64,000 nt of DNA from Nemertoderma westbladi (taxonomy: Eukaryota > Animalia > Xenacoelomorpha). The position numbers and the translations under genes were made by a program. Shown one piece after another: positions 8,788-47,850 of this stretch. Numbering within the stretch: position 1 is the stretch's first letter; the number at the start of each line of letters is the position of its first letter. The notes beneath the pieces are model-generated. The model was given only the letters and a program-made list of their open reading frames with translations, was not told the origin of the DNA and did no database searches. The stretch spans positions 5,291 through 69,290 of the forward strand of contig JAUCBJ010007749.1 of the NCBI GenBank assembly GCA_032718475.1. Reading direction: 5' to 3'.

Positions 8788-9047
8788 TTTTAAAACGCTT
8801 ATAAAAAAAATTTTAAGGCGAAATCGAAAATTCCGGCTTCATGGTAACAACCACGGTGAGTTGAACTACTGAACTAGTTGTGTTTCAAATTTCTAGCAAT
8901 ATGATAAAGATTTGTAGAAAAATTTGGCAGTTTGGGGGGGCGGCATTTCCGTGTCATCAGAAAATGACACTATATTACGGCAGTACGGGTCAGGGTCTGA
9001 TGGTGTATATAGGCTATCAATCAGACTGTAGCCTACGAAAAACGAAC

Positions 9048-18896: not shown

Positions 18897-18902
18897 TTTA
18901 TT
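18897..18902 (-). promoter_or_regulatory. Candidate polyadenylation signal of the giant SepSecS-like gene
   Basis: AATAAA on the minus strand ~185 nt past the TAG stop. The AT-rich context weakens the call. Confidence 0.35.
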
Positions 18903-22000: not shown

Positions 22001-25000
22001 TATGTTATCCATCTCTATATCTGGAGATTCCTCATGTTGTATGTTATCCGTCTCTATATCTGGAGATTCATCATGTTGTATGTTATCTGTCTCTATATCT
22101 GGAGATTCCTCATGTTGTATGTTATCCATCTCTATATCTGGAGATTCCTCATGTTGTATATTATCAGTCTCTATATCTGGAGATTCATCATGTTGTATGT
22201 TATCTGTCTCTATAACTGGAGATTCCTTATCAGTCTCCATAACTGGAGATTCCACATGTTGTATGTTATCCATCTCTATATCTGGAGATTCCTCATGTTG
22301 TATGTTATCAGTCTCTATATCTGGAGATTCATCATCTTGTATGTCATCTGTCTCTATAATTTGAGATTCCTTACCAGTTTCTATATTAGGAGATTCCTCA
22401 TGTTGTATATTAGCAGTCTCTATATCTGGAGATTCCTCATGTTGTATGTTATTAGTCTCTATATCTGGAGATTCATCATCTTGTATGTCATCTGTCTCTA
22501 TAACTTGAGATTCCTTACCAGTTTCTATATTAGGAGATTCCTCATGTTGTATATTATCAGTCTCTATATCTGGAGATTCCTCATGTTGTATGTTATCCAT
22601 CTCTATATCTGGAGATTCCTCATGTTGTATGTTATCAGTCTCTATATCTGGAGATTCATCATCTTGTATGTCATCTGTCTCTATAACTTGAGATTCCTTA
22701 CCAGTTTCTATATTAGGAGATTCCTCATGTTGTATATTATCAGTCTCTATATCTGGAGATTCCTCATGTTGTATGTTATTAGTCTCTATATCTGGAGATT
22801 CATCATCTTGTAAGTCATCTGTCTCTATAACTTGAGATTCCTTACCAGTTTCTATATTAGGAGATTCCCCATGTTGTATATTATCAGTCTCTATATCTGG
22901 AGATTCCACATGTTGTATGTTATCCATCTCTATATCTGGAGATTTCTCATGTTGTATATTATCAGTCTCTATATCTGGAGATTCATCATGTTGTATGTTA
23001 TCCGTTTCTATATCTGGAGATTTTTTATCAGTCTCTATATCTGGAGATTCTTTATCCGTCTCTATATCTGGAGATTCTTTATCCGTCTCTATATCTGGAG
23101 ATTTCTTATCCGTCTCTATATCTGGAGATTCATCATGTTGTATGTTATCCGTCTCTATATCTGGAGATTCCTCATGTTGTATGTTATCTGTCTCTATATC
23201 TGGAGATTCATCATGTTGTATGTTATCAGTCTCTATATCTGGAGATTCATCATGTTGTATGTTATCTGTCTCTATAACTGGAGATTCCGTATCATTCTCT
23301 ATTTCTGGAGATTCCTCATGTTGTATATTATCAGTCTCCATATCTGGAGATTCCACATGTTGTATATTATCCGTCTCTATATCTGAAGATTTCTTATCAA
23401 TCTCTATATCTGGAGATTCTTTATCAGTCTCTATATCTAGAGATTCCTCATGTTGTATATTATCAGTCTCTATATCTGGAGATTCATCATGTTGTATGTT
23501 ATCTGTCTCTATAACTGGAGATTCCTTATCATTCTCTATAACTGGAGATTCCTCATGTTGTATATTATCAGTCTCCATATCTGGAGATTCCACATGTTGT
23601 ATATTATCAGTCTCTATATCTGGAGATTCCACATGTTGTATGTTATCCATCTCTATATCTGGAGATTCCTCATGTTGTATATTATCAGTCTCTATATCTG
23701 GAGATTCATCATGTTGTATGTTATCTGTCTCTATAACTGGAGATTCCTTATCATTATCTATATCTGGAGATTCCACATGTTGTATTTTATCAGTCTCTAT
23801 ATCTGGAGATTCCTTATGTTGTATTTTATCAGTCTCCATAACTGGAGATTCCCCATGTTGTCTGTTATCCGTCCCTATATCTGGAGATTCCTCATGTTGT
23901 AAATTATCAGTCTCTATATCTGGAGATTCCTTATCATTCTCTATTTCTGGAGATTCATCATGTGGTATATTATCAGTCTCTATATCTGGAGATTCATCAT
24001 GTTGTATGTTATCCGTCTCTATACCTGGAGATTCCTCATGTTGTATATTATCAGTCTCTATATCTGGAGATTCCTCATGTTGTATATTATCTGTCTCTAT
24101 AACTGGAGATTCGTCATGTTGTATGTTATCTGTCTCTATATCTGGAGATTCATCATGTTGTATGTTATCTGTCTCTATATCTGGAGATTCATCATGTTGT
24201 ATATTATCAGTCTCTATATCTGGAGATTCCTCATGTAGTATGTTATCTGTCTCTATAACTGGAGATTCGTCATGTTGTATGTAATCTGTCTCTATAACTG
24301 GAGATTCCTTATGTTGTATGTTATCAGTCTCTATATCTGGAGATTCCTCATGTTCTATGTTAACCGTCTCTATATCTGGAGATTCCACATGTTGTATTTT
24401 ATCCGTCTCTATAACCGGAGATTCCTCATGTTGTATATTATCAGTCTCTATATCTGGAGATTCCTCATGTTGTATATTATCTGTCTCTATATCTGGAGAT
24501 TCATCATGTTGTATGTTATCTGTCTCTATATCTGGAGATTCCTTATGTTGTATATTATCAGTCTCTATATCTGGAGATTCCTCATGTTGTATGTTATCTG
24601 TCTCTATAACTGGAGATTCGTCATGTTGTATGTTATCCGTATCTATATCGGGAGATTCCACTTGTTGACTGTTATCCGTATCTATATCTGGAGATTCCTC
24701 ATGTTGTATCTTATCTGTCTCTATAACTGGAGATTCCTTATCCTTCTCTATATCTTGAGATCCCTTATCCGTCTCTATAACCGGAGATTCCTCATGATGT
24801 ATGTTATCCGTCTCTATATCTGGAGATTCCACTTGTTGACTGTTATCTTTCTCTATATCTGTAGAATCCTCATGTTGTATGTTATCAGTCTCTATACCTG
24901 GAGATTCCTTATGTTGTATTTTATCAGTCTCTATACCTGGAGAATCCTCATGTTGTATGTTATCAGTCTCTATATCTGGAGATTCGTTATGTTGTATTTT

Positions 25001-28000
25001 ATCAGTCTCTATATCTGGAGATTCCACATGTTGTATTTTATCAGTCTCTATATCTGGAGATTCCTTATGTTGTTTGTTATCCATCTCTATACCTGGAGAA
25101 TCCTCATGTTGTATGTTATCAGTCTCTATATCTGGAGATTCCTTATGTTGTATTTTATCAGTCTCTATATCTGGAGATTCCACATGTTGTATTTTATCAG
25201 TCTCTATATCTGGAGATTCCACATGTTGTATTTTATCAGTCTCTATATCTGGAGATTCCACTTGTTGTATTTTATCAGTCTCTATACCTGGAGAATCCTC
25301 ATGTTGTATGTTATCAGTCTCTATACCTGGAGATTCCTTATGTTGTATTTTATCAGTCTCTATACCTGGAGAATCCTCATGTTGTATGTTATCAGTTTCT
25401 ATATCTGGAGATTCCTTTTGTTGTATTTTATCAGTCTCTATATCTGGAGATTCCACATGTTGTATTTTATCAGTCTCTATATCTGGAGATTCCTTATGTT
25501 GTTTGTTATCCATCTCTATACCTGGAGAATCCCCATGTTGTATGTTATCAGTCTCTATATCTGGAGATTCATCATGTTGTATGTTATCAGTCTCTATATC
25601 TGGATATTCCTCATGTTGTATTTTATCAGTCTCTATAACTGGAGATTCCTTATGTTGTATTTTATCAGTCTCCATAACTGGAGATTTCACATCTTGTATA
25701 TTATCAGTCTCTATATCTGGAGATTCCTTATCCATCTCTATATCTGGAGATTCCTTATGTTGTATTTTATCAGTCTCCATAACTGGAGATTCCACATGTT
25801 GTATATTATCAGTCTCTATATCTGGAGATTCCTTATCCATCTCTATTTCTGGAGATTCCTTATGTTGTATTTTATCAGTCTCCATAACTGGAGATTCCAC
25901 ATGTTGTATATTATCAGTCTTTATATCTGGAGATTCCTTATGTTGTATGTTATCCATTTCTATATCTGGAGATTCCTTATGTTGTATGTTATCCATCTCT
26001 ATATCTGGAGATTCCACTTGTTGACTGTTATCAGTCTCTATATCTGGAGATTCCTCATGTTGTATGTTATCTTTCTCTATATCTGGAGATTCCTTATGTT
26101 GTATTTTATCAGTCTCTATAACTGGAGATTCCACATGTTGTATATTATCAGTCTCTATATCTGGAGATTCCTTTTCCATCTCTATATCTGGAGATTCCTT
26201 ATGTTGTATTTTATCAGTCTCCATAACTGGAGATTCCACATGTTGTATATTATCAGTCTTTATATCTGGAGATTCCTTATGTTGTATGTTATCCATTTCT
26301 ATATCTGGAGATTCCTTATGTTGTATGTTATCCATCTCTATATCTGGAGATTCCACTTGTTGACTGTTATCAGTCTCTATATCTGGAGATTCCTCATGTT
26401 GTATGTTATCTTTCTCTATATCTGGAGATTCCTTATGTTGTATGTTATCCATCTCTATATCTGGAGATTCCACTTGTTGACTGTTATCAGTCTCTATATC
26501 TGGAGATTCCTCATGTTGTATGTTATCTTTCTCTATATCTGGAGATTCTTTATGTTGTATGTTATCCATCTCTATATCTGGAGATTCCACTTGTTGACTG
26601 TTATCAGTCTCTATATCTGGAGATTCCTCATGTTGTATGTTATCTTTCTCTATATCTGGAGATTCCTTATGTTGTATGTTATCCATCTCTATATCTGGAG
26701 ATTCCACTTGTTGACTGTCATCAGTCTCTATATCTGGAGATTCCTTATCCATCTCTATATCTGGAGTTTCCTTATGTTGTATTTTATCAGTCTCCATAAC
26801 TGGAGATTTCACATCTTGTATATTATCAGTCTCTATATCTGGAGATTCCTTATGTTGTATGTTATCCATCTCTATATCTGGAGATTCCACTTGTTGACTG
26901 TCATCAGTCTCTATATCTGGAGATTCCTTATCCATCTCTATATCTGGAGTTTCCTTATGTTGTATTTTATCAGTCTCCATAACTGGAGATTTCACATGTT
27001 GTATATTATCAGTCTCTATATCTGGAGATTCCTCATGTTCTATGTTTTCCGTCTCTATATCTGGAGATTCCTCATGTTCTACATTATCAGTCTCTATATC
27101 TGGAAATTCCTCATGTTGTATGTTATCAGTCTCTACACCTGGAGAATCCTCATGTTGTCTGTTATCAGTCTCTATAACTGGAGATTCCTTATGTTGTATG
27201 TTATCAGTCTCTATATCTAGAGATTCCTCATGTTGTATGTTATCAGTCTCTATATCTAGAGATTCCACTTGTTGTAAGTTATCAGTCTCTATAACTGGAG
27301 TTTCTTTATCATTATCTTTATCTGGAGATTCATCATGTTGTATGTTATCCGTCTCTATATCTGGAAATTCCTCATGTTGTATATTATCAGTCTCTATAAC
27401 TGGAGATTCCTTATCATTCTCTATATTTGGGGATCCCTTATCAGTCTCTATAACTTGAGATTCCTCATGTTGTATGTTATTAGTCTCTATACCTGGAGAA
27501 TCCTCATGTTCTCTGTTATCAGTCTCTATATCTGGAGATTCCTTATGTTGTATATTATCAGTCTCTATATCTGGAGATTCCTCATGTTCTACATTATCAG
27601 TCTCTATATCTGGAAATTCCTCATGTTGTATGTTATCAGTCTCTACACCTGGAGAATCCTCATGTTGTCTGTTATCAGTCTCTATAACTGGAGAGTCCTC
27701 ATGTTGTATATTATCAGTCTCTATAACTGGAGATTCCTTATCATTCTCTATATCTGGGGATCCCTTATCAGTCTCTATAACTTGAGATTCCTCATGTTGT
27801 ATGTTATTAGTCTCTATACCTGGAGAATCCTCATGTTCTCTGTTATCAGTCTCTATATCTGGAGATTCCTTATGTTGTATATTATCAGTCTCTATACCTG
27901 GAGAATCCTCATGTTGTCTGTTATCAGTCTCTATAACTGGAGAGTCCTCATGTTGTTTATTATCAGTCTCTATAACTGGAGATTCCTTATGTTGTATATT

Positions 28001-31000
28001 ATCAGTCTCTATATCTGGAGATTCCTTATGTTGTATATTATCAGTCTCTATATCTGGAAATTCCTCATGTTGTCTGTTATCAGTCTCTATAACTGGAGAG
28101 TCCTCATGTTGTTTATTATCAGTCTCTATAACTGGAGATTCCTTATGTTGTATATTATCAGTCTCTATATCTGGAGATTCCTTATGTTGTATATTATCAG
28201 TCTCTATATCTGGAAATTCCTCATGTTGTCTGTTATCAGTCTCTATAACTGGAGAGTCCTCATGTTGTTTATTATCAGTCTCTATAACTGGAGATTCCTT
28301 ATGTTGTATGTTATCAGTCTCTATATCTGGAGATTCCACTTGTTGACTGTTATCTTTCTCTATATCTGGAGATTCCTTATCAGTCTCTATATCTGGAGAT
28401 TCCTTATCAGTCTCTATATCTGGAGATTCCTTATCATTCTCTATAACTGGAGATTCCTTATCAGTCTCTATATCTGGAGATTCCTTATCAGTCTCTATAT
28501 CTGGATATTCCTTATCAGTCTCTATATCTGGAGATTCCTTATCATTCTCTATAACTGGAGATTCCTTATCAGTCTCTGTATCTGGATATTCCTTATCTGT
28601 CTCTATAACTGGAGATTCCTTATCATTCTCTATAACTGGAGATTCATCATGTTGTATGTTATCAGTCTCTATATCTGGAGATTCATCATGTTGTATGTTA
28701 TCAGTCTCTATATCTGGAGATTCCTTATCATTCTCTATTTCTGGAGATTCATCATGTTGTATGTTATCAGTCTCTATATCTGGAGATTCCTTATCAGTCT
28801 TTATATCTGGAGATTCCTTATCAGTCTCTATATCTGGAGATTCATCATGTTGTATGTTATCAGTCTCTATATCTGGAGGTTCCTTATGTTGTATATTATC
28901 CGTCTCTATATCTGGAGATTCCACTTGTTGACTGTTAGGCCTATCTGTCTCTATATCTGGAGATTCCTTATCAGTCTCTATATCTGGAGATTTCTTATCA
29001 TTCTCTATATCTGGAGATTCCTTATCAGTCTCTGTATCTGGATATTCCTTATCTGTCTCTATAACTGGAGATTCCTTATCATTCTCTATATTTGGAGATT
29101 CATCATGTTGTATGTTATCCGTCTCTATATCTGGAGATTCCTTATCTGTCTCTATATCTGGAGATTCCTTATCAGTCTCTATATCTGGAGATTTCTTATC
29201 ATTCTCTATATCTGGAGATTCCTTATCAGTCTCTGTATCTGGATATTCCTTATCTGTCTCTATAACTGGAGATTCCTTATCATTCTCTATATCTGGAGAT
29301 TCATCATGTTGTATGTTATCCGTCTCTATATCTGGAGATTCCTTATCTGTCTCTATAACTGGAGATTCCTTATCTGTCTCTATATCTGGAGATTCCTTAT
29401 CATTCTCTATATCTGGAGATTCCACTTGTTGACTGTTATCTGTCTCTATATCTGGAGATTCCTTATCAGTCTCTATATCTGGAGATTCCTTATCAGTCTC
29501 TGTATCAGGAGATTCCTTATCAGTCTCTATATCTGGAGATTCCTTATCTGTCTCTATATCTGGAGATTCCACTTGTTGACTGTTATCTGTCTCTATATCT
29601 GGAGATTCCTTATCAGTCTCTATATCTGGAGATTCCTTATCAGTCTCTATATCTGGAGATTCCTTATCAGTCTCTATATCTGGAGATTCCTTATCTGTCT
29701 CTATATCTGGAGATTCCACTTGTTGACTGTTATCAGTCTCTATAACTGGAGATTCTTTATCATTATCTTTATCTGGAGATTCATCATGTTGTATGTTATC
29801 CGTATCTATATCGGGAGATTCCACTTGTTGACTGTTATCTTTCTCTGAATCAGGAGATTCCTTATCAGTCTCTATATCTGGAGATTCCTTATCTGTCTCT
29901 ATATCTGGAGATTCCACTTGTTGACTGTTATCAGTCTCTATAACTGGAGATTCTTTATCATTATCTTTATCTGGAGATTCATCATGTTGTATGTTATCCG
30001 TATCTATATCGGGAGATTCCACTTGTTGACTGTTATCTTTCTCTATATCTGGAGATTCCTTATCAGTCTCTATATCTGGAGATTCCACTTGTTGTAAGTT
30101 ATCAGTCTCTATAACTGGAGATTCTTTATCATTATCTTTATCTGGAGATTCATCATGTTGTATGTTATCCGTATCTATATCGGGAGATTCCACTTGTTGA
30201 CTGTTATCTTTCTCTATATCTGGAGATTCCTTATCAGTCTCTATATCTGGAGATTCCACTTGTTGTAAGTTATCAGTCTCTATAACTGGAGATTCTTTAT
30301 CATTATCTTTATCTGGAGATTCATCATGTTGTATGTTATCCGTATCTATATCGGGAGATTCCACTTGTTGACTGTTATCTGTCTCTATATCTGGATATTC
30401 CTTATCAGTCTCTATATCTGGAGATTCCTTATCAGTCTCTATATCTGGAGATTCCTTATCCGTATCTATATCTGGAGATTCCACTTGTTGTAAGTTATCA
30501 GTCTCTATAACTGGAGATTCTTTATCATTATCTTTATCTGGAGATTCATCATGTTGTATGTTATCAGTCTCTATATCGGGAGATTCCACTTGTTGACTGT
30601 TATCTGTCTCTATATCTGGAGATTCCTTATCAGTCTCTATATCTGGAGATTCCACTTGTTGTAAGTTATCAGTCTCTATAACTGGAGATTCTTTATCATT
30701 ATCTTTATCTGGAGATTCATCATGTTGTATGTTATCAGTCTCTATATCGGGAGATTCCACTTGTTGACTGTTATCTGTCTCTATATCTGGAGATTCCTTA
30801 TCAGTCTCTATATCTGGAGATTCCTTATCCGTATCTATATCTGGAGATTCCACTTGTTGACTGTTATCCGTCTCTATATCTGGAGATTCCTTATCATTCT
30901 CTATATCTGGAGATTCCTCATGTTGTATGTTATCAGTCTCTATATCGGGAGATTCCTTATCATTCTCTATATCTGGAGATTCCTCATGTTGTATGTTATC

Positions 31001-34000
31001 AGTCTCTATATCGGGAGATTCCACTTGTTGACTGTTATCTTTCTCTATATTTGGAGATTCCTTATCAGTCTCTATATCTGGAGATTCCACTTGTTGACTG
31101 TTATCTTTCTCTGAATCAGGAGATTCCTTATCAGTCTCTATATCTGGAGATTCCTTATCTGTCTCTATATCTGGAGATTCCACTTGTTGACTGTTATCAG
31201 TCTCTATAACTGGAGATTCTTTATCATTATCTTTATCTGGAGATTCATCATGTTGTATGTTATCAGTCTCTATATCTGGAGATTCCTCATGTTGTACGTT
31301 ATCCGTCTCTATATCTGGAGATTCCTTATCATTCTCTATATCTGGAGATTCCTCATGTTGTATGTTATCAGTCTCTATATCGGGAGATTCCACTTGTTGA
31401 CTGTTATCTTTCTCTATATTTGGAGATTCCTTATCAGTCTCTATATCTGGAGATTCCACTTGTTGACTGTTATCTTTCTCTATATCTGGAGATTCCTTAT
31501 CAGTCTCTATATCTGGAGATTCCTTATCAGTCTCTATATCTGGAGATTCCTTATCAATCTCTGTATCTGGATATTCCTTATCAGTCTCTATATCTGGAGA
31601 TTCCTTATCATTCTCTATAACTGGAGATTCCTTATCATTCTCTATATCTGGAGATTCATCATGTTGTATGTTATCCGTCTCTATATCTGGAGATTCCACT
31701 TGTTGACTGTTAGGCCTATCTGTCTTTATATCTGGAGATTCCTTATCAGTCTCTATATCTGGAGATTCCTTATCAGTCTCTATATCTGGAGATTCCTTAT
31801 CAGTCTCTGTATCTGGAGATTCCTTATCTGTCTCTATATCTGGAGATTCCACTTGTTGACTGTTATCTGTCTCTATATCTGGAGATTCCTTATCAGTCTC
31901 TATATCTGGAGATTCCTTATCAGTCTCTATATCTGGAGATTCCTTATCAGTCTCTGTATCAGGAGATTCCTTATCAGTCTCTATATCTGGAGATTCCTTA
32001 TCTGTCTCTATATCTGGAGATTCCACTTGTTGACTGTTATCTGTCTCTATATCTGGAGATTCCTTATCAGTCTCTATATCTGGAGATTCCTTATCAGTCT
32101 CTATATCTGGAGATTCCTTATCAGTCTCTGTATCAGGATATTCCTTATCAGTCTCTATATCTGGAGATTCTTTATCTGTCTCTATATCTGGAGATTCCAC
32201 TTGTTGACTGTTATCTGTCTCTATATCTGGAGATTCCTTATCAGTCTCTATATCTGGAGATTCCTTATCCGTCTCTATCACTGGAGATTCCTTATGTTGT
32301 ATGTTATCTTTCTCTATATCTGGGGATTCCTTATCAGTCTCTATATCTGTAGAATCCTCATGTTGTATATTATCAGTCTCTATAACTGGATATTCCATAT
32401 CATTCTCTATATCTGGAGATTCCTCATGTTGTATATTATCTGTCTCTATATCTGGAGATTCATCATGTTGTATATTATCAGTCTCTATATCTGGAGATTC
32501 CTTATCCGTCTCTATATCTGGAGATTCCACATGTTGTATATTATCCGTCTCTATAACTGGAGATTCCTCATGTTGTATATTATCAGTCTCTATATCTGGA
32601 GATTCCTTATGTTGTATATTATCAGTCTCTATAACTGGATATTCCATATCATTCTCTATAACTGGAGATTCCTCCTGTTGTATATTATCAGTCTCTATAT
32701 CTGGAGATTCCTCCTGTTGTATATTATCAGTCTCTATATCTGGAGATTCATCATGTTGTATGTTATCAGTCTCTAAAACTGGAGATTCATCATGTTGTAT
32801 GTTATCCGTATCTATATCTGGAGATTTCACTTGTTGACTGTTATCCGTCTCTATATCTGGAGATTCCACTTGTTGACTGTTATCAGTCTCTATATCTGGA
32901 GATTCCTTATCATTCTCTATATCTGGAGATTCCTCATGTTGTATGTTATCAGTCTCTAAAACTGGAGATTCCTCATGTTGTATGTTATCAGTCTCTATAT
33001 CTGGAGATTCCTCATGTTGTATGTTATCAGTCTCTATATCTGGAGATTCCTCATGTTGTATGTTATCAGTCTCTATATCTGGAGATTCCTCATGTTGTAT
33101 GTTATCAGTCTCTATAACTTGAGATTCCACATGTTGTATGTTATCAGTCTCTATATCTGGAGATTCCTCATGTTGTATGTTATCAGTCTCTATATCTGGA
33201 GATTCCACTTGTTGACTGTTATCAGTCTCTATATCTGGAGATTCCTTATGTTGTACGTTATCCGTCTCTATATCTGGAGATTCCTTATCATTCTCTATAA
33301 CTGGAAATTCCTCATGTTGTATATTATCAGTCTCTATATCTGGAGATTCCACTTGTTGACTGTTATCAGTCTCTATATCTGGAGATTCCTTATGTTGTAC
33401 GTTATCCGTCTCTATATCTGGAGATTCCTCATGTTGTATATTATCAGTCTCTATATCTGGAGATTCCACTTGTTGACTGTTATCTGTCTCTATATCTGGA
33501 GATTCCTCATCAGTCTCTATATCTGGAGATTCCTTATCAGTCTCTATATCTGGAGATTCCTCATGTTGTATGATATCCATCTCTATATCTGGAGATTCCT
33601 CATGTTCTATGTTAACCGTCTCTATATCTGGAGATTCCTTATCAGTCTCTATATCTGGAGATTCCACATGTTGTATATTATCCGTCTCTATAACTGGAAA
33701 TTCCTCATGTTGTATATTATCAGTCTCTATATCTGGAGATTCCACTTGTTGACTGTTATCTGTCTCTATATCTGGAGATTCCTCATCAGTCTCTATATCT
33801 GGAGATTCCTTATCAGTCTCTATATCTGGAGATTCCTCATGTTGTATGATATCCATCTCTATATCTGGAGATTCCTCATGTTCTATGTTAACCGTCTCTA
33901 TATCTGGAGATTCCTTATCAGTCTCTATATCTGGAGATTCCACTTGTTGTATGTTATCTGTCTCTATAACTGGAGATTCCTTATGTTGTATATTATCTGT

Positions 34001-37000
34001 CTCTATAACTGGAGATTCCTTATGTTGTATATTATCTGTCTCTATAACTGGAGATTCCACTTGTTGTATGTTATCTGTCTCTATAACTGGAGATTCCTTA
34101 TCAGTCTCTATATCTGGAGATTCATCATGTTGTATATTATCTGTCTCTATATCTGGAGATTCCACTTGTTGACTTTTATCTGTCTCTATATCTGGAGATT
34201 CCTTATCAGTCTCTATATCTGGAGATTCCACTTGTTGTATGTTATCTGTCTCTATAACTGGAGATTCCTTATGTTGTATATTATCTGTCTCTATAACTGG
34301 AGATTCCTTATGTTGTATATTATCTGTCTCTATAACTGGAGATTCCTCATGTTGTATATTATCAGTCTCTATATCTGGAGATTTCACTTGTTGTATGTTA
34401 TCTGTCTCTATAACTGGAGATTCCTTATGTTGTATATTATCTGTCTCTATAACTGGAGATTCCTCATGTTGTATATTATCAGTCTCTATATCTGGAGATT
34501 CCACTTGTTGTATGTTATCTGTCTCTATAACTGGAGATTCCTTATGTTGTATATTATCTGTCTCTATATCTGGAGATTCCACTTGTTGACTGTTATCCGT
34601 ATCTATATCTGGAGATTCCTCATGTTGTATGTTATCTGTCTCTATAACTGGAGATTCCTTATGTTGTATATTATCAGTCTCTATAACTGGAGATTCTTTA
34701 TCATTATCTTTATCTGGAGATTCATCATGTTGTATGTTATCTGTCTCTATAACTGGAGATTCCTTATGTTGTATATTATCTGTCTCTATATCTGGAGATT
34801 CCTTATCATTCTCTATATCTGGAGATTCCTTATCAGTCTCTATATCTGGAGATTCCACTTGTTGTAAGTTATCAGTCTCTATAACTGGAGATTCTTTATC
34901 ATTATCTTTATCTGGAGATTCATCATGTTGTATGTTATCTGTCTCTATATCTGGAGATTCCTCATGTTGTATGTTATCTGTCTCTATAACTGGAGATTCC
35001 TTATGTTGTATATTATCAGTCTCTATAACTGGAGATTCTTTATCATTATCTTTATCTGGAGATTCATCATGTTGTATGTTATCTGTCTCTATAACTGGAG
35101 ATTCCTTATGTTGTATATTATCTGTCTCTATATCTGGAGATTCCTTATCATTCTCTATATCTGGAGATTCCTTATCAGTCTCTATATCTGGAGATTCCAC
35201 TTGTTGTAAGTTATCAGTCTCTATAACTGGAGATTCTTTATCATTATCTTTATCTGGAGATTCATCATGTTGTATGTTATCCGTATCTATATCGGGAGAT
35301 TCCACTTGTTGACTGTTATCTTTCTCTATATCTGGAGATTCCTTATCAGTCTCTATATCTGGAGATTCATCATGTTGTATGTTATCCGTCTCTATATCTG
35401 GAGATTCCACTTGTTGACTGTTATCTGTCTCTATATCTGGAGATTCCTTATCATTCTCTATATCTGGAGATTCATCATGTTGTATGTTATCCGTCTCTAT
35501 ATCTGGAGATTCCACTTGTTGACTGTTATCTGTCTCTATATCTGGAGATTCCTTATCATTCTCTATATCTGGAGATTCATCATGTTGTATATTATCAGTC
35601 TCTATATCTGGAGATTCATCATGTTGTATGTTATCCGTCTCTATATCTGGAGATTCCACTTGTTGACTGTTATCTGTCTCTGTATCTGGAGATTCCTTAT
35701 CAGTCTCTATATCTTGAGTATCTTGAGATTCATTATGTTCTATGTTACCAGTCTCTAAACCTGATGATTCGTCAGATGGTTTGTTAACATCATCATCGCC
35801 ATCAACATCATCAACAATGTCGGGCCCTTCTTTTATGGTCTGCAAACACTTTTTGAGTCGCTTTATTATGCACTCAGCGTCATTCTGAGTCAAACCGAAA
35901 GCTACAGTGCAGAGCAAATAAGGAAAGTGCTGATAGATGTTGTCATGGGAATCAAAGGTTATGAATTTGTGACATCCGATAAACTTCGCTTGTGTGTTGG
36001 ACTCAACAATTCGAATACCAAACATGTTAAAATGAGATAACATGGAATCCAAACGAGAGGCCTTGGAACCCAAAAGAGATGCTTTGCATGCAGTTAGTTT
36101 CGCGGCGGACTGGTATGTTTTTTGAGTGGCCTTCTGTTCTGTTGGTTGGGTGCCATTGTCGTCTGTTGGTTGGCTGTCGTTGTGGTCTGTTGGTTGGTTG
36201 CCATTGTGGTCTGTTGTTCGGGTGTTGTTGTTGTCTGTTGTTGGTTGGGTTTCGTTCTGATATATCTGATTAGACAATGTCATTGCTATAGATATTCCGT
36301 TGTGGGGAGTTTCTAAAACTTTCTCACCCAACTGCGCTGCTAAAGATGTTAGCTCACCCCTAAAATAACTATAAACGTATTTATGGCTACGCAATAATCC
36401 TAGGTACCCGTCCCTTCCCATAGATAAAAGTGTTATAAATACATCTACAATGGGGGCGGCACTGGCCCTACCAGGGTATGTTCCGCATACAAGTGAGATT
36501 AACTCCTCTTTGGGAGAGGCAATTATCGCTCCTCCTATTGGAACCATTAAATTTGTATGAGTACTCTGAACCACTAAGTCTATAAGACCATTATGTGAAG
36601 CCTCATCTACAAGTTGGCATAATTTATTGTTTAGTAGGCCGTGGTCGTTGTTTACCAGATGAAACACACTAAACCGTCGACAAATCAATCCGACCAGTTC
36701 TAATTGGTCTGCAACGCTAGGAGCGAAGCTTGACGTAGTCGAGAGAACGCAGAGGACCAGCGACCGATTTATCTCCAAGAGTTTATTCTCTATCTCCAAG
36801 ATATCGCTAGTTAATTCGTCTCCAACAAAATTATTTTCAACCACAACCGGTTCCATTCCCGCTGCGGTAATGAATTTGTAACAGGATTTCTGTTCATTTC
36901 GTGGCAAAATTACGTATTTCGCGGTCGGTTTTTTACCTTTAAGTGCCAATAAACAAAGTGTCAGCGCCATTTCCGTAGCTTCAGGGACAATTACGCAACC

Positions 37001-37408
37001 TGAGATGGAGTTTATCCCGCATAGTTTGAATGCGTCTAATACAAGGTCGTTAGCGAGTTTATTTAGGAGACTAGAACCAGACGCTTTGGGATGGGATGCA
37101 GCTATATCCTCTGATAGACTTATACCGTGTGTCAACCGGAAGTGACGTCTTTCGACGAGATCAGAGTATAAACGGCCCCCCCTCTCGCCGGCGGCGATTT
37201 TGCCAGGTAAGTTCTTGGTATCCATGGCAGACAGCTGATTTAGTAATAACTCAATGGTAACATCGTCCCAACCTTGGCTAGGGATTTTTCTGTGTTCTAG
37301 AAGGTTACGAATTAGGTTGTATTGCGATTGGAGTCCTTCCTGACATTGCTGGATGTTTGTTTTTGGGACAAGGCTTTCTAAAAAGGGAAACCCATTGGAA
37401 TCAGTCAT
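19088..37408 (-). CDS. SEPSECS-like: Giant intronless protein (6,106 aa from ATG 37408): degenerate SepSecS (O-phosphoseryl-tRNA(Sec) selenium transferase)-like domain fused to ~5,500 aa of acidic tandem repeats
   Basis: The N-terminus matches SepSecS throughout: GWDDVTIE, GERGGR, RRHFRLTHGI, PKASGSSLLNK, QKSC, STTSSFAP, MVPIGGAII, YPGRASA, TPHNGISIAMTL, IKRLKKCL. The frame is open to TAG at 19090-19088. The track's start at 37438 is TTG; the first ATG is 37408. Confidence 0.85.
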   Translation of the reverse strand: MTDSNGFPFLESLVPKTNIQQCQEGLQSQYNLIRNLLEHRKIPSQGWDDVTIELLLNQLSAMDTKNLPGKIAAGERGGRLYSDLVERRHFRLTHGISLSEDIAASHPKASGSSLLNKLANDLVLDAFKLCGINSISGCVIVPEATEMALTLCLLALKGKKPTAKYVILPRNEQKSCYKFITAAGMEPVVVENNFVGDELTSDILEIENKLLEINRSLVLCVLSTTSSFAPSVADQLELVGLICRRFSVFHLVNNDHGLLNNKLCQLVDEASHNGLIDLVVQSTHTNLMVPIGGAIIASPKEELISLVCGTYPGRASAAPIVDVFITLLSMGRDGYLGLLRSHKYVYSYFRGELTSLAAQLGEKVLETPHNGISIAMTLSNQIYQNETQPTTDNNNTRTTDHNGNQPTDHNDSQPTDDNGTQPTEQKATQKTYQSAAKLTACKASLLGSKASRLDSMLSHFNMFGIRIVESNTQAKFIGCHKFITFDSHDNIYQHFPYLLCTVAFGLTQNDAECIIKRLKKCLQTIKEGPDIVDDVDGDDDVNKPSDESSGLETGNIEHNESQDTQDIETDKESPDTETDNSQQVESPDIETDNIQHDESPDIETDNIQHDESPDIENDKESPDIETDNSQQVESPDIETDNIQHDESPDIENDKESPDIETDNSQQVESPDIETDNIQHDESPDIETDKESPDIEKDNSQQVESPDIDTDNIQHDESPDKDNDKESPVIETDNLQQVESPDIETDKESPDIENDKESPDIETDNIQHKESPVIETDNIQHDESPDKDNDKESPVIETDNIQHKESPVIETDNIQHEESPDIETDNIQHDESPDKDNDKESPVIETDNLQQVESPDIETDKESPDIENDKESPDIETDNIQHKESPVIETDNIQHDESPDKDNDKESPVIETDNIQHKESPVIETDNIQHEESPDIDTDNSQQVESPDIETDNIQHKESPVIETDNIQQVESPDIETDNIQHEESPVIETDNIQHKESPVIETDNIQQVKSPDIETDNIQHEESPVIETDNIQHKESPVIETDNIQHKESPVIETDNIQQVESPDIETDKESPDIETDKSQQVESPDIETDNIQHDESPDIETDKESPVIETDNIQQVESPVIETDNIQHKESPVIETDNIQHKESPVIETDNIQQVESPDIETDKESPDIETVNIEHEESPDIEMDIIQHEESPDIETDKESPDIETDEESPDIETDNSQQVESPDIETDNIQHEEFPVIETDNIQHVESPDIETDKESPDIETVNIEHEESPDIEMDIIQHEESPDIETDKESPDIETDEESPDIETDNSQQVESPDIETDNIQHEESPDIETDNVQHKESPDIETDNSQQVESPDIETDNIQHEEFPVIENDKESPDIETDNVQHKESPDIETDNSQQVESPDIETDNIQHEESPDIETDNIQHVESQVIETDNIQHEESPDIETDNIQHEESPDIETDNIQHEESPDIETDNIQHEESPVLETDNIQHEESPDIENDKESPDIETDNSQQVESPDIETDNSQQVKSPDIDTDNIQHDESPVLETDNIQHDESPDIETDNIQQEESPDIETDNIQQEESPVIENDMEYPVIETDNIQHKESPDIETDNIQHEESPVIETDNIQHVESPDIETDKESPDIETDNIQHDESPDIETDNIQHEESPDIENDMEYPVIETDNIQHEDSTDIETDKESPDIEKDNIQHKESPVIETDKESPDIETDKESPDIETDNSQQVESPDIETDKESPDIETDKEYPDTETDKESPDIETDKESPDIETDKESPDIETDNSQQVESPDIETDKESPDIETDKESPDTETDKESPDIETDKESPDIETDKESPDIETDNSQQVESPDIETDKESPDTETDKESPDIETDKESPDIETDKESPDIKTDRPNSQQVESPDIETDNIQHDESPDIENDKESPVIENDKESPDIETDKEYPDTEIDKESPDIETDKESPDIETDKESPDIEKDNSQQVESPDIETDKESPNIEKDNSQQVESPDIETDNIQHEESPDIENDKESPDIETDNVQHEESPDIETDNIQHDESPDKDNDKESPVIETDNSQQVESPDIETDKESPDIETDKESPDSEKDNSQQVESPDIETDKESPNIEKDNSQQVESPDIETDNIQHEESPDIENDKESPDIETDNIQHEESPDIENDKESPDIETDNSQQVESPDIDTDKESPDIETDKESPDIETDNSQQVESPDIETDNIQHDESPDKDNDKESPVIETDNLQQVESPDIETDKESPDIETDNSQQVESPDIETDNIQHDESPDKDNDKESPVIETDNLQQVESPDIDTDKESPDIETDKESPDIETDKEYPDIETDNSQQVESPDIDTDNIQHDESPDKDNDKESPVIETDNLQQVESPDIETDKESPDIEKDNSQQVESPDIDTDNIQHDESPDKDNDKESPVIETDNLQQVESPDIETDKESPDIEKDNSQQVESPDIDTDNIQHDESPDKDNDKESPVIETDNSQQVESPDIETDKESPDIETDKESPDSEKDNSQQVESPDIDTDNIQHDESPDKDNDKESPVIETDNSQQVESPDIETDKESPDIETDKESPDIETDKESPDIETDKESPDIETDNSQQVESPDIETDKESPDIETDKESPDTETDKESPDIETDKESPDIETDNSQQVESPDIENDKESPDIETDKESPVIETDKESPDIETDNIQHDESPDIENDKESPVIETDKEYPDTETDKESPDIENDKKSPDIETDKESPDIETDKESPDIETDNIQHDESPNIENDKESPVIETDKEYPDTETDKESPDIENDKKSPDIETDKESPDIETDRPNSQQVESPDIETDNIQHKEPPDIETDNIQHDESPDIETDKESPDIKTDKESPDIETDNIQHDESPEIENDKESPDIETDNIQHDESPDIETDNIQHDESPVIENDKESPVIETDKEYPDTETDKESPVIENDKESPDIETDKEYPDIETDKESPDIETDKESPVIENDKESPDIETDKESPDIETDKESPDIEKDNSQQVESPDIETDNIQHKESPVIETDNKQHEDSPVIETDNRQHEEFPDIETDNIQHKESPDIETDNIQHKESPVIETDNKQHEDSPVIETDNRQHEEFPDIETDNIQHKESPDIETDNIQHKESPVIETDNKQHEDSPVIETDNRQHEDSPGIETDNIQHKESPDIETDNREHEDSPGIETNNIQHEESQVIETDKGSPDIENDKESPVIETDNIQHEDSPVIETDNRQHEDSPGVETDNIQHEEFPDIETDNVEHEESPDIETDNIQHKESPDIETDNREHEDSPGIETNNIQHEESQVIETDKGSPNIENDKESPVIETDNIQHEEFPDIETDNIQHDESPDKDNDKETPVIETDNLQQVESLDIETDNIQHEESLDIETDNIQHKESPVIETDNRQHEDSPGVETDNIQHEEFPDIETDNVEHEESPDIETENIEHEESPDIETDNIQHVKSPVMETDKIQHKETPDIEMDKESPDIETDDSQQVESPDIEMDNIQHKESPDIETDNIQDVKSPVMETDKIQHKETPDIEMDKESPDIETDDSQQVESPDIEMDNIQHKESPDIEKDNIQHEESPDIETDNSQQVESPDIEMDNIQHKESPDIEKDNIQHEESPDIETDNSQQVESPDIEMDNIQHKESPDIEKDNIQHEESPDIETDNSQQVESPDIEMDNIQHKESPDIEMDNIQHKESPDIKTDNIQHVESPVMETDKIQHKESPDIEMEKESPDIETDNIQHVESPVIETDKIQHKESPDIEKDNIQHEESPDIETDNSQQVESPDIEMDNIQHKESPDIEMDNIQHKESPDIKTDNIQHVESPVMETDKIQHKESPEIEMDKESPDIETDNIQHVESPVMETDKIQHKESPDIEMDKESPDIETDNIQDVKSPVMETDKIQHKESPVIETDKIQHEEYPDIETDNIQHDESPDIETDNIQHGDSPGIEMDNKQHKESPDIETDKIQHVESPDIETDKIQQKESPDIETDNIQHEDSPGIETDKIQHKESPGIETDNIQHEDSPGIETDKIQQVESPDIETDKIQHVESPDIETDKIQHVESPDIETDKIQHKESPDIETDNIQHEDSPGIEMDNKQHKESPDIETDKIQHVESPDIETDKIQHNESPDIETDNIQHEDSPGIETDKIQHKESPGIETDNIQHEDSTDIEKDNSQQVESPDIETDNIHHEESPVIETDKGSQDIEKDKESPVIETDKIQHEESPDIDTDNSQQVESPDIDTDNIQHDESPVIETDNIQHEESPDIETDNIQHKESPDIETDNIQHDESPDIETDNIQHEESPDIETDNIQHEESPVIETDKIQHVESPDIETVNIEHEESPDIETDNIQHKESPVIETDYIQHDESPVIETDNILHEESPDIETDNIQHDESPDIETDNIQHDESPDIETDNIQHDESPVIETDNIQHEESPDIETDNIQHEESPGIETDNIQHDESPDIETDNIPHDESPEIENDKESPDIETDNLQHEESPDIGTDNRQHGESPVMETDKIQHKESPDIETDKIQHVESPDIDNDKESPVIETDNIQHDESPDIETDNIQHEESPDIEMDNIQHVESPDIETDNIQHVESPDMETDNIQHEESPVIENDKESPVIETDNIQHDESPDIETDNIQHEESLDIETDKESPDIEIDKKSSDIETDNIQHVESPDMETDNIQHEESPEIENDTESPVIETDNIQHDESPDIETDNIQHDESPDIETDNIQHEESPDIETDNIQHDESPDIETDKKSPDIETDKESPDIETDKESPDIETDKKSPDIETDNIQHDESPDIETDNIQHEKSPDIEMDNIQHVESPDIETDNIQHGESPNIETGKESQVIETDDLQDDESPDIETNNIQHEESPDIETDNIQHEESPNIETGKESQVIETDDIQDDESPDIETDNIQHEESPDIEMDNIQHEESPDIETDNIQHEESPNIETGKESQVIETDDIQDDESPDIETNNIQHEESPDIETANIQHEESPNIETGKESQIIETDDIQDDESPDIETDNIQHEESPDIEMDNIQHVESPVMETDKESPVIETDNIQHDESPDIETDNIQHEESPDIEMDNIQHEESPDIETDNIQHDESPDIETDNIQHEESPDIEMDNIQHVESPDKETDNIQHVESPDIETDNIQQVESPDIETDKIQHVESPDKETDNIQHVESPDIETDKIQHKESPDIETDNIQHVESPDIETDKIQHVESPDKETDNIQHVESPDIETDNIQQVESPDIETDKIQHVESPDKETDNIQHVESPDIETDKIQHKESPDIETDNIQHVESPDIETDNIQQVESPDIETDKIQHVESPDKETDNIQHVESPDIETDKIQHKESPDIETDNIQHVESPDIETDKIQHVESPDKETDNIQHVESPDIETDNIQQVESPDIETDKIQHVESPDKETDNIQHVESPDIETDKIQHKESPDIETDNIQHVESPDIETDKIQHVESPDKETDNIQHVESPDIETDKIQHKESPDIEMHKESPDIETDNSQQVESPDIEMDNRQHEESPVIETDKIQHKESPDIETDNIQHVESPVMETDKIQHKESPDIEMPKESPDIETDNSQQVESPDIEMDNIQHEESPDIETDNIQHKESPDVETVNIEREESPDIETDKESPDIETDKESPDIETDKESPVIETINMQHDESPDIETDNIQHDESPVRETDKIQHVESPDIETDKIQHKESPDIETVNIQHEESPVIETDKIQHVESSDIETDKIQHKESPDIETVNIEHEESPDIETDKESPVIETDNIQHDESPDIETDNIQHEESPVIETNKIQHVKSPDIETDNIQHVESPDKETDNIQHVESPVMETDNIQHVESPDIETDNIQHDESPDIETDKESPDIETDNSQQVESLDIETDNIQHKESPDIETDKESPDIETDKESPDIETDKESPVIETINIQHDESPDIETDNIQHDESPVRETDKIQHVESPNIETDKESHVIETDDIQDDESPDIEIDKIQHVESPDIEIDRIQHVESPDIEIDKIQHVESPDIEMDNCSSDNDPIPEETDSGWECVQVEGGVSSNNVVTSLNETDGSKSGKPRKFSIVSHVVSGLLGLFSRGK
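19285..35765 (-). repeat. Coding minisatellite of ~16.5 kb made of mixed 39-bp (ESPDIETDNIQHx) and 27-bp (ESPDIETDK) units, roughly 450-500 units
   Basis: The core gtctctatatctggagattc repeats throughout. Every length variant I saw is a multiple of 3 (27, 39, 45 bp). Confidence 0.95.
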
Positions 37409-37652
37409 AGTTATGATATAATTCAATTCTTTGATCAAATTTAAACTTCATAATTAGGATTTATCATCGTAAGTATAAGTTGATCCAATTCGCCATAAAA
37501 TATGCTTTCGAGGCATTTGCGATGAGACGTGGTAATTTGCATTATATTATTTTACTTTTTACATTAATCTATGAAACAGACAGCTCGATATCTGGATCTT
37601 TGGGGAACAGTATTATTACTAAATAAGAACTAAGGATTGGAACTAAGAACTA

Positions 37653-38390: not shown

Positions 38391-39186
38391 GACTAATTAT
38401 AATAGAAATTATATTAAATTATACTAATTATAAGAGAATCATGTGGCAATAAATTGATAATACACATATGTGAATATTAATAAGAGTGGAATATAACCTC
38501 TAGATCCACTTAACCATTATTAGAACTCTGGGAATTAATGTACTTAATAGAATTCACATTCGTAGTTATTAGTATTAGAAGAACACAACTACAGTATCGA
38601 TACATAAGATAAACGTGGGAGCAAATATTAGCATTTCGGAAACCACTTTTAGAGATTTGTTCACAAATTTAGTTAGTATTTTTATATAATTAAACGCAAT
38701 TCCGATCAGTGTGTTTCATGGAATTAGGAATATTTTACAATTTATTAATTACATAATTTTTATTCCTTAGCGTGAAATAAATATATACTTCTTCTAATAA
38801 TAATTCAGGAAAAATAATGATAGTAATAGTAATAATTATAATTTAATATTATCTTATGGATTCTTTGTTTAGAATTCTGTATCAAAATAGCCTATATCAA
38901 TAATATATTACTATAATAATATATCTTATTTATACATCACAGAAATCTGTTAATATATTATGTATATCAAGATATCAGATCGATGATACTTATTAATAAT
39001 ATAACAAACAAACAATAATTTGGAATAATTTGATTGCATTGGATTGCTAGACAAACAACAAACAGTTAGTGAAGCATACACATAGTTGCCGCCACTAATT
39101 GATCAATTGTACTGAAGTCACCAGCTGTTTACGAAATTAAATGTTATTAATAAATCCGGAATGTAACCCAGAAATTATTTATTATT

Positions 39187-39727
39187 TAACTATAGTGCTG
39201 CACCATTAACTATAGTGCTGCACCATTAACTATAGTGCTGCACCATTAACTATAGTGCTGCACCATTAACTATAGTGCCGCGCCATTAACTATAGTGCCG
39301 CGCCATTAACTATAGTGCTGCACCATTAACTATAGTGCTGCACCATTAACTATAGTGCTGCACCATTAACTATAGTGCTGCACCATTAACTATAGTGCTG
39401 CACCATTAACTATAGTGCTGCACCATTAACTATAGTGCTGCACCATTAACTATAGTGCTGCACCATTAACTATAGTGCAGCACCTTTAACTATAGTGCTG
39501 CACCATTAACTATAGTGCTGCACCATTAACTATAGTGCTGCACCATTAACTATAGTGCTGCACCATTAACTATAGTGCTGCACCATTAACTATAGTGCTG
39601 CACCATTAACTATAGTGCTGCACCATTAACTATAGTGCTGCACCATTAACTATAGTGCTGCACCATTAACTATAGTGCTGCACCATTAACTATAGTGCTG
39701 CACCATTAACTTTAGTGCTGCGCCATT
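39187..39727. repeat. 20-bp minisatellite (TAACTATAGTGCTGCACCAT), ~27 copies
   Basis: Near-perfect tandem copies that abut the broken end of a LINE fragment. Confidence 0.95.
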
Positions 39728-44660: not shown

Positions 44661-46955
44661 TAACAACACCAACTCATTCCCTTTTTCTTCTCTAACGTTT
44701 AGGTAATGTAACAACATCAACTCATTCCCTTTCTCTTCTCTAACGTTTAGGTAATGTAACAACATCAACTCATTCCCTTTCTCTTCTCTAACGTTTAGGT
44801 AATGTAACAACACCAACTCATTCCCTTTCTCTTCTCTAACGTTTAGGTAACAACACCAACTCATTCCCTTTCTCTTCTCTAACGTTTAGGTAACAACACC
44901 AACTCATTCCCTTTCTCTTCTCTAACGTTTAGGTAACAACACCAACTCATTCCCATTTTCTTCTCTAACGTTTAGGTAATGTAACAACATCAACTCATTC
45001 CCTTTCCCTTCTCTAACGTTTAGGTAATGTAACACCAACTCATTCCCTTTCTCTTCTCTAACGTTTAGGTAATGTAACAACATCAACTCATTCCCTTTCT
45101 CTTCTCTAACGTTTAGGTAACAACACCAATTCATTCCCTTTCTCTTCTCTAACGTTTAGGTAATGTAACAACATCAACTCATTCCCTTTCTCTTCTCTAA
45201 CGTTTAGGTAACAACCCCAACTCATTCCCTTTCTCTTCTCTAACGTTTAGGTAACAACACCAACTCATTCCCATTTTCTTCTCTAACGTTTAGGTAATGT
45301 AACAACATCAACTCATTCCCTTTCTCTTCTCTAACGTTTAGGTAATGTAACAACATCAACTCATTCCCTTTCTCTTCTCTAACGTTTAGGTAACAACACC
45401 AACTCTTTCCCTTTCTCTTCTCTAACGTTTAGGTAATGTAACAACATCAACTCATTCCCTTTCTCTTCTCTAACGTTTAGGTAATGTAACAACATCAACT
45501 CATTCCCTTTCTCTTCTCTAACGTTTAGGTAATGTAACAATATCAACTCATTCCCTCTCTCTTCTCTAGCGTTTAGGTAATGTAACAACATCAACTCATT
45601 CCCTTTCTCTTCTCTAACGTTTAGGTAATGTAACAACATCAACTCATTCCCTTTCTCTTCTCTAACGTTTAGGTTATGTAACAACATCAACTCATTCCCT
45701 TTCTCTTCTCTAACGTTTAGGTAATGTAACAACACCAACTCATTCCCTTTCTCTTCTCTAACGTTTAGGTAATGTAACAACATCAACTCATTCCCTTTCT
45801 CTTCTCTAACGTTTAGGTAACAACACAAACTCATTCCCTTTCTCTTCTCTAACGTTTAGGTAACAACACCAACTCATTCCCTTTTTCTTCTCTAACGTTT
45901 AGGTAATGTAATAACATCAACTCATTCCCTTTCTCTTCTCTAACGTTTAGGTAATGTAACAACATCAACTCATTCCCTTTCTCTTCTCTAACGTTTAGGT
46001 AACAACACCAACTCTTTCCCTTTCTCTTCTCTAACGTTTAGGTAATGTAACAACATCAACTCATTCCCTTTCTCTTCTCTAACGTTTAGGTAATGTAACA
46101 ATATCAACTCATTCCCTCTCTCTTCTCTAGCGTTTAGGTAATGTAACAACATCAACTCATTCCCTTTCTCTTCTCTAACGTTTAGGTAATGTAACAACAT
46201 CAACTCATTCCCTTTCTCTTCTCTAACGTTTAGGTAATGTAACAACATCAACTCATTCCCTTTCTCTTCTCTAACGTTTAGGTAATGTAACAACATCAAC
46301 TCATTCCCTTTCTCTTCTCTAACGTTTAGGTAATGTAACAACATCAACTCATTCCCTTTCTCTTCTCTAACGTTTAGGTAACAACACCAACTCTTTCCCT
46401 TTCTCTTCTCTAACGTTTAGGCAATGTAACAACATCAACTCATTCCCTTTCTCTTCTCTAACGTTTAGGTAATGTAACAACATCAACTCATTCCCTTTCT
46501 CTTCTCTAACGTTTAGGTAATGTAACAACATCAACTCATTCCCTTTCTCTTCTCTAACGTTTAGGTAATGTAAGAACATCAACTCATTCCCTTTCTCTTC
46601 TCTAACGTTTAGGTAATGTAACAACACCAACTCATTCCCCTTCTCTTCTCTAGCGTTTAGGTAATGTAACAACATCAACTCATTCCCTTTCTCTTCTCTA
46701 ACGTTTAGGTAATGTAACAACACCAACTCATTCCCCTTCTCTTCTCTAACGTTTAGGTAATGTAACAACATCAACTCATTCCCTTTCTCTTCTCTAACGT
46801 TTAGGTAATGTAAGAACATCAACTCATTCCCTTTCTCTTCTCTAACGTTTAGGTAATGTAACAACACCAACTCATTCCCCTTCTCTTCTCTAGCGTTTAG
46901 GTAATGAAACAACATCAACTCATTCCCCTTCTCTTCTCTTGCGTTTAGGTAATGT
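44661..46955. repeat. 48-bp minisatellite with a 43-bp variant, ~49 copies
   Basis: The unit is aacaacatcaactcattccctttctcttctctaacgtttaggtaatgt. Its first copy on the minus strand overlaps the last codons and stop of the basic-protein gene. Confidence 0.95.
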
Positions 46956-47320: not shown

Positions 47321-47607
47321 CTGACCTTCTTCACTCCGCCACTCGGTCTTCCTCTAACGTTCGGACCTTCACTCCGCCACTCGGTCTACCTCTAACGTTC
47401 GACTGACCTTCACTCCGCCACTCGGTCTACCTCTAACGTTCGACTGACCTTCACTCCGCCACTCGGTCTACCTCTAACGTTCGACTGACCTTCACTCCAC
47501 CACTCGGTCTACCTCTAACGTTCGACTGACCTTCACTCCGCCACTCGGTCTACCTCTAACGTTCGACTGACCTTCACTCCGCCACTCGGTCTACCTCTAA
47601 CGTTCGA
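47321..47607. repeat. 41-bp minisatellite, 7 copies, each repeating the exon end and splice donor
   Basis: The minus-strand unit is TCGAACGTTAGAGGTAGACCGAGTGGCGGAGTGAAG|GTCAG. Confidence 0.9.
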
Positions 47608-47850
47608 CCCTCTCCTTTTCGACTTCCACTTTCCTTTCGTCCCCTTTCCTCTATGACTCTTTGACTTACTTCCTTTACCTCGGCGACTCCTTGACCTGCT
47701 CTTCTTTCCCTTACTACTTCCCTTTCTCGTCGTTCGTCTCCTTTTCTCCATTTCTTTCTTGCTTGTTTCCCCCCGATCGTCAACTAAACCCGAACCCCGC
47801 ACTTCAACCTGCTCCGCTCCATGATTGTCACTGTCTGCGCTCGCAGCCAT
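47572..47850 (-). CDS. Putative small basic (Lys/Arg/Ser-rich, protamine-like composition) protein, exon 1
   Basis: ATG 47850 opens 93 codons including KRRRTTRKGSSKGKKSRSRSRRGKGSKSKS, ending at the donor AAG|GTCAGT (GT at 47571-47570). Confidence 0.6.

Follow-up and report, generated by a model that had tools for sequence, protein, structure and literature searches.

The 64-kb window analysed here (the whole stretch of DNA, 64,000 nucleotides) carries on its minus strand a SepSecS-derived domain in which the lysine that forms the Schiff base with PLP is replaced by threonine, and which continues into an acidic repeat array of about 5,500 residues (Table 1). We lean towards the reading that this SepSecS copy is catalytically dead and still made as a protein, its fold serving as the predicted oligomeric head of a giant acidic tail. 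The initial annotation had reported the loss of the lysine and proposed a pseudoenzyme; the multiple further lesions, the shallow depth of the inactivation and the fusion to the 5,500-residue acidic array go beyond that account.

Table 1. Coordinates of the SepSecS-derived reading frame, its altered sites and the tandem arrays of the window
Feature	Position	Strand	Evidence or remark
Single-exon ORF, 6,106 aa, ~695 kDa, pI ~4.05	ATG 37408 to stop 19088	-	
SepSecS-fold domain, aa 1-527	35828..37408	-	PF05889 E 2.6e-99; PDB 3HL2 E 1.4e-117
Phosphate-binding loop altered: G96S, R97L, G99E, Q105H (human numbering); S97, L98, E100, H106 in the query	37091..37120	-	
G145E (query E146); Gly binding the PLP phosphate	36971..36973	-	Mapping from archaeal Gly140 by motif spacing
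A254D and Y255H (query D255, H256); Ala reported to pack on the PLP ring	36641..36646	-	
His284-Thr285 replacing human Asp283-Lys284 (PLP Schiff-base lysine)	36554..36559	-	Gap-free alignment
In-frame low-complexity loop, 73 aa (median 13 in 241 homologues)	36053..36271	-	Low model confidence
R398F (query F460); reported reader of tRNA-Sec G73	36029..36031	-	
Coding tandem array, aa 566-6034, ~460 units	19307..35713	-	
Unique C-terminal tail, ~70 aa: acidic stretch and a last amphipathic, basic-flanked segment	19088..19306	-	
AATAAA, candidate polyadenylation signal, ~185 nt past the stop	18897..18902	-	Read from sequence
Further tandem array, 20-nt unit	39186..39727		
Further tandem array, 48-nt unit	44661..46955		
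Further tandem array, 41-nt unit	47329..47608		
Further tandem array, 27-nt unit	48119..53794		
Further tandem array, 36-nt unit	58833..60146		
Further tandem array, ~45-nt unit	62323..64000		

A SepSecS fold without its Schiff-base lysine

By both the Pfam cut-off and its fold, the domain is a SepSecS by descent. It scored 333 bits against PF05889 (curated cut-off, 21.1), and the first Met of the 6,106-aa ORF aligns with the SepSecS start. The AlphaFold2 model of the domain (mean pLDDT, 87.6) matched human SepSecS 7L1T in Foldseek with a TM-score of 0.97 (target length) and an rmsd of 1.4 Å, ranks 1-23 all being SepSecS, although a model built from an alignment of intact enzymes will tend towards their fold.

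The motif VVQSTHTNLMVPIGG covers residues 279-293 (36574-36530, minus strand). In the alignment with the human chain 3HL2_A, Asp283-Lys284 (the Lys284 position being counted along the alignment) pair without a gap with His284 (codon CAT, 36559-36557) and Thr285 (codon ACA, 36556-36554). Both replacements had been claimed by the initial annotation, and both hold, as does the human SEPSECS motif that it gave; the change of the lysine is confirmed by translation, by the 3HL2_A alignment and by contigs of three sequencing runs. A register shift supplying another lysine was ruled out by the gap-free alignment and by the lack of any Lys nearby, the loop having no other and the closest being K263 and K299. 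The comparison with SepSecS homologues that had been proposed as a check was made with 268 sequences. Of these, 120 were the top-ranking matches of a first search (282 in all), and the other 148 were additional proteins from the top 150 of a second (1,908 in all). Among them the Schiff-base column holds lysine in 264, a gap in three and threonine in one (P0163, 37% identical and unrelated), i.e. 264 of the 265 homologues covering the column have lysine.

As far as the contigs show, an assembly error at Thr285 is contradicted: one contig from each of the runs X1, X2 and X3 covers 35700-37700 with no other letters and no gaps relative to the window, this evidence being contigs rather than raw reads and each run being possibly the window's own source. 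X1 and X2 derive from one sample (S1, study P1) and X3 from another (S2, study P2). That two samples of different studies and years are identical across 2 kb (35700-37700) points to very low diversity or to the same stock.

Further damage across the active site

Residue roles are best described for the archaeal enzyme, in which Lys278Ala is reported to abolish activity in vivo and in vitro, in agreement with the premise of the initial annotation that catalysis needs this lysine (PMC2275076). In the same report, Arg94, Gln102 and Arg307 bind the phosphate of phosphoserine and their mutants lose activity, the PLP ring is sandwiched between Ala249 and His166, and the PLP phosphate is bound by Gly140 and Arg72 (Araiso et al., PMC2275076); these roles were transferred to human numbering by motif spacing, and the mapping is therefore a presumptive one. 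Arg398 is reported to read the discriminator base G73 of tRNA-Sec (Puppala et al., PMC10164584), and is described as eukaryotic and not universal, archaea mostly having Leu there (PMC11602143).

Seven of 13 functional sites defined from the literature are changed (R97L, Q105H, G145E, A254D, D283H, K284T and R398F), against 14 of the 76 other columns conserved at ≥90% (p 0.011), the 13 sites having been taken from papers but fixed after the changes had been seen. Stricter site sets gave p values of 0.016, 0.046 and 0.038, and leaving out the lysine and D283 gave 0.10; the enrichment of changes at the active site is modest. Among the phosphoserine-binding residues, R97 and Q105 are changed, while R313 is kept, as is S98 within the altered phosphate-binding loop. 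In the PLP pocket the changes G145E and A254D stand beside the kept R75, Q172 and N252, and K173 is also kept (human numbering; R76, S99, K174 and R314 are the retained query equivalents of R75, S98, K173 and R313). Helix 9, which binds tRNA, has a charge of -1, compared with a 5-95% range of +1 to +4 in the homologues. The query departs from the consensus at 16 of the 64 columns with ≥95% conservation; homologues have a median of 0 such changes and at most 14 (P0217, whose changes all lie within one N-terminal stretch and probably reflect a bad gene model).

Fold-type-I PLP enzymes require the Schiff-base lysine; in its absence neither the Schiff base nor selenocysteine can be made. The domain thus lacks the Schiff-base lysine, and its phosphoserine binding, PLP pocket and Arg398 depart from those of an active SepSecS; catalytic residues have been lost, as in a pseudoenzyme. 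Because the lysine and further PLP- and phosphate-binding residues are changed, Sec synthase activity has, judged from these residues, almost certainly been lost.

It is very improbable that the protein is instead a still-active enzyme with a new chemistry, or that the changes are a sequencing or assembly artefact. A new chemistry could draw on the kept anion-binding R76, S99, K174 and R314 (query numbering), but the loop offers no substitute Lys, acidic side chains have appeared at two places in the PLP pocket, and the archaeal Lys-to-Ala mutant is reported to be inactive though all its other residues are intact (PMC2275076). An artefact could be shared by the window and the runs that confirm the codon if these are its own source; however, 16 changes at near-invariant columns are more than an error in a single codon could produce, and there is no base at which the contigs of the two studies disagree.

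A dead subunit with a regulatory function, either co-assembling with an active SepSecS paralogue in the manner of LCB1/LCB2 or inhibiting through a tRNA-mimicking acidic tail, would suit the retention of R75, S98 and R313, which are given to the partner's site, together with Q172, K173 and N252. There are also precedents, since the acidic C-terminal extension of human SepSecS (helix 16) is reported to block tRNA sites (PMC10164584, PMC11602143), and LCB1, without a PLP lysine, is reported to serve in a heterodimer (PMC3794620). However, R97 and Q105, which the partner supplies for phosphoserine, and both flanking glycines are changed, so that the dead copy could not complete a partner's site; the basic charge of helix 9 is lost, and a 5,500-residue tail far exceeds the needs of inhibition. 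We regard a regulatory subunit of this kind as improbable.

Shallow inactivation and probable constraint on the fold

The hydrophobic core of the domain is largely kept. It was defined as the 87 columns with a hydrophobic residue in ≥97% of homologues, and 85 of them are still hydrophobic here; the two exceptions, I171N and A255D (query numbering), border the active site. Neutral decay was simulated by introducing substitutions into back-translated sequences of intact homologues, up to the point where as many conserved columns were altered as in the query. On this basis 4.9-6.8 stops are expected where none was seen (P of none ≤0.008), and 6.8-10 core losses where 2 were seen (P 0.005-0.047). 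Under each of eight settings, not one of 600 runs combined the lack of stops with ≤2 core losses; the simulation covered substitutions only, and indels would make neutrality less likely still. The terminal branch of the domain is 0.85 against a median of 0.34 (2.5x), while that of the nearby proteasome beta-3 gene (PSMB3) is 0.62 against 0.12 (5x), and the SepSecS domain would therefore not be free of constraint. These trees were built with FastTree from hand-picked homologues (39 of 268 for SepSecS, 33 of 120 for PSMB3); both genes group among animals on long branches, with the phylum not separated.

Each of the 20 changes found at columns with ≥90% conservation is a single base away from a codon for the conserved residue. 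Such a pattern agrees with 0.1-0.3 substitutions per site and would be unlikely at ≥0.4; the inactivation therefore appears shallow. Plain decay at 0.1-0.13 substitutions per site would also give 20 of 20 single-base steps with a P of ~0.2-0.3, and this is consistent with a young pseudogene, i.e. a redundant or unneeded SepSecS copy in neutral decay whose 3' minisatellite of 39- and 27-nt units stays open in frame by chance. Against such decay stand the predicted 5-7 stops and 7-10 core losses, compared with the 0 and 2 seen (frameshifts uncounted), and the concentration of changes at functional sites; with the evidence from the array given below, we consider a pseudogene rather unlikely.

From the simulation, and not from an orthologue dN/dS, we infer that fold and frame have been kept by selection, and it is quite probable, as far as sequence can tell, that the domain is translated and under selection. 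Of the pseudoenzyme claim in the initial annotation, the loss of catalysis is therefore well supported, and its preference over a pseudogene is favoured by the lack of stops and the kept hydrophobic core, from which it would follow less directly.

With so shallow an inactivation, a parent copy might be expected near 80-85% identity. No second SepSecS-like piece was found among contigs at 85% (X1, X2, X3, X5) or 80% (X1, X3, X4, X5) identity, in a scan in which contigs may be filtered out, the parent may be <80% identical, and neither X4 nor X5 extends over the domain. Residues 1-530 gave no match among 3,334 candidate proteins of 3,358-10,686 aa, lengths of 929-3,357 aa being covered by the representatives search only. 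The longest of the 268 homologues has 1,130 aa, and none above 560 aa has a tail exceeding 19% D+E. An exact look-up of three proteins in the protein collection found 0 of 3, and none of 81 pattern matches in metagenome contigs was confirmed.

An in-frame acidic array and its C-terminal tail

A short acidic linker joins the SepSecS domain to the array, whose units are mostly of 39 nt (13 aa, DIETDNIQHEESP type) and 27 nt (9 aa, DIETDKESP type), with 309 of the former and 137 of the latter by our own division. The array consists of 34% D+E, carries a net charge of -0.29 per residue (-1,569 over 5,500 aa), and contains 430 S/T-P sites and 250 His. Its length and frame are known from the window assembly alone, short-read contigs stopping at the array edge. 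The coding frame has no stop, whereas the other two frames on the same strand have hundreds. None of 398 anchor spacings is out of frame, compared with 11 of 48, 94 of 188 and 3 of 28 in the three other 3n-unit arrays of the window used as controls (three further arrays with non-3n units were left out), and the 398 spacings stem from few independent length changes. All six further arrays have frame-breaking length variants or non-3n units. Substitutions among the array units predict 4.8 stops where none is seen (P ~0.004), or 2.4 (P ~0.06) with each distinct change counted once.

The array therefore bears on the young pseudogene in both directions. On the one hand, synonymous and non-synonymous changes among the repeat units are close to the numbers that neutrality predicts (38 observed and 32.9 expected; 10 and 9.1), unrelated tandem arrays abound in the window, one simple repeat there is open for 537 of 559 codons without sign of coding, and a high-copy element lies ~245 nt upstream of the ATG. 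On the other hand, the 16.4-kb array is always in frame, unlike the three control arrays. For the array, the frame and bulk composition seem to matter, and the exact residues do not. The array as an intron was rejected, there being no acceptor-like site in or after it and one weak donor-like site at 35748.

The acidic stretch of the C-terminal tail has a W-x-x-V motif at aa 6056, which we take to be a putative LIR-like motif. The tail segment is no transmembrane helix, its 19-residue hydropathy reaching at most 0.95, and the 6,106-aa ORF has no hydrophobic N-terminus that could be a signal peptide. A secreted biomineral protein was rejected on the same ground, barring an unseen upstream exon. 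Pfam gave no match for array or tail, and the ESM Atlas no usable match for the last 470 aa; a single-sequence model of the last 300 aa (pLDDT 37) is uninformative beyond its compatibility with disorder.

Genomic setting

The SepSecS ORF is intronless, as is the nearby PSMB3 gene (57740-58357, plus strand; best match 63% identical). An AKAP17A-like gene (PF25015) has two exons (676-2141 and ~9047-9505, minus strand) and one GT-AG intron of ~6.9 kb, inside which sits a degraded reverse-transcriptase ORF (3282-4178). The window is characterised by the presence of spliceosomal introns and by repeat-rich sequence, and the identity of PSMB3 together with its branch of five times the median suggests a fast-evolving, possibly intron-poor genome. 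A retrocopy would be expected to lack the introns of its parent and to retain a trace of poly-A; the SepSecS ORF is intronless, as noted, and no poly-A tract lies downstream of the candidate polyadenylation signal.

The element upstream of the SepSecS start (37644-38399) is MITE-like, has ~750 nt and imperfect inverted ends, and one of its ends is high-copy in all four sequencing runs compared. ORFs at 42349-43584 (plus strand) and 55750-56576 are presumably remnants of non-LTR retroelements, and had no match in Pfam. Neither a tRNA gene nor an Rfam match was found in the 64-kb window.

A possible role as an oligomeric head

SepSecS forms dimers and tetramers. It is described as a dimer of dimers held by N-terminal helices (PMC2275076), and in the present copy 67 of the first 130 residues agree with the homologue consensus, a number inside the range seen among homologues (minimum 51, median 86). 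Under the favoured reading of a dead but translated copy, selection on the active site would have ceased fairly recently (~0.1-0.3 substitutions per site) but would have persisted on the fold and the reading frame. The protein would be cytosolic, because it has no signal peptide. That the domain is the oligomeric head of the acidic chain is a tentative proposal read from the anatomy of the protein. A tetramer would then carry four probably disordered chains with a charge of ~-1,570 each, whose function could be that of a long spacer or tether, of a cation-binding polyanion or of a cation store. The amphipathic C-terminus might hold the chains to a membrane or partner, the 430 S/T-P sites might tune them, and the pocket vacated by the cofactor may be filled by Glu146 and Asp255, set against the retained Arg76 and Arg314. 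Acidic C-terminal extensions are reported to have arisen repeatedly on SepSecS (PMC11602143), which would make a plausible starting point for the expansion of the array.

An unlikely reading is that this is the organism's only SepSecS, so that an animal lineage recently gave up selenocysteine synthesis and, rather than losing the enzyme, made its tetramer the hub of a 2.8-MDa four-armed polyanion. The exaptation of a Sec synthase would then have been caught just 0.1-0.3 substitutions per site after the loss. Animals without selenoproteins are reported to include insects, some nematodes and some mites (PMC5330540, PMC4561486), and the lack of an intact paralogue would mean a new selenoprotein loss in animals.

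Comparison with known systems

Catalytically dead paralogues are known among both PLP enzymes and Sec-pathway enzymes, whereas an inactive SepSecS joined to a giant acidic array appears to be a new form of them. No dead SepSecS paralogue was found in print among the papers listed, judged by titles and the starts of abstracts, with most subscription papers outside the search, and the supplements to the study of 874 SepSecS orthologues could hold lysine-less sequences (PMC11602143). The copy shares with active SepSecS the whole fold and domain order, ~50% identity with its best-matching animal homologues across aa 1-390, and R75, S98, Q172, K173, N252 and R313; it differs in K284T, D283H, R97L, Q105H, G145E, A254D and R398F, in a loop insertion of ~60 aa, and in the 5,500-aa acidic array where homologues end.

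The 1,130-aa SepSecS-RRM protein P0163 has the same Lys-to-Thr change at the same column, arisen independently, and a long C-terminal extension of low complexity with a C-terminal RRM; T144A and A254V (human numbering) were also observed in it. It differs from our copy in being only 37% identical, in grouping away from it, beside Capsaspora with weak support, in having only three changes at columns conserved at ≥95%, and in being a single unverified gene model. P0163 is possibly a second dead SepSecS, or a fused or faulty gene model, and it hints that Lys-to-Thr SepSecS copies with long extensions may recur.

Neurofilament-H and nestin combine an assembly head with a long, acidic S/T-P repeat tail. 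The likeness is one of analogy alone, a sequence relation not having been found with Pfam or the ESM Atlas. Should the SepSecS domain serve as such a head, the present protein would be a testable case of an enzyme oligomer turned structural head soon after inactivation. LCB1 (SPTLC1) of serine palmitoyltransferase is likewise a PLP-enzyme homologue reported to lack the PLP lysine and to be kept as a protein (PMC3794620); however, LCB1 completes the active site of LCB2, whereas the present copy has lost in-trans residues too. An LCB1-like half-site role is unlikely here because the partner-site residues R97 and Q105 are changed.

SepSecS is a marker for selenocysteine use. The present copy is a warning that a genome screen can take an inactive SepSecS for a sign of Sec use. 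A close parallel within the pathway is SPS1 (SEPHS1), a non-catalytic copy of a Sec-pathway enzyme that has lost selenophosphate synthesis and been kept, and that is reported to persist in insects without selenoproteins (PMC4561486). SPS1 comes from another family, evolved on several occasions, and is both broadly distributed and strongly conserved, while the dead SepSecS is known from one genome and combines multi-site damage with a giant fusion. A fold-keeping, non-catalytic SepSecS would be the counterpart of SPS1.
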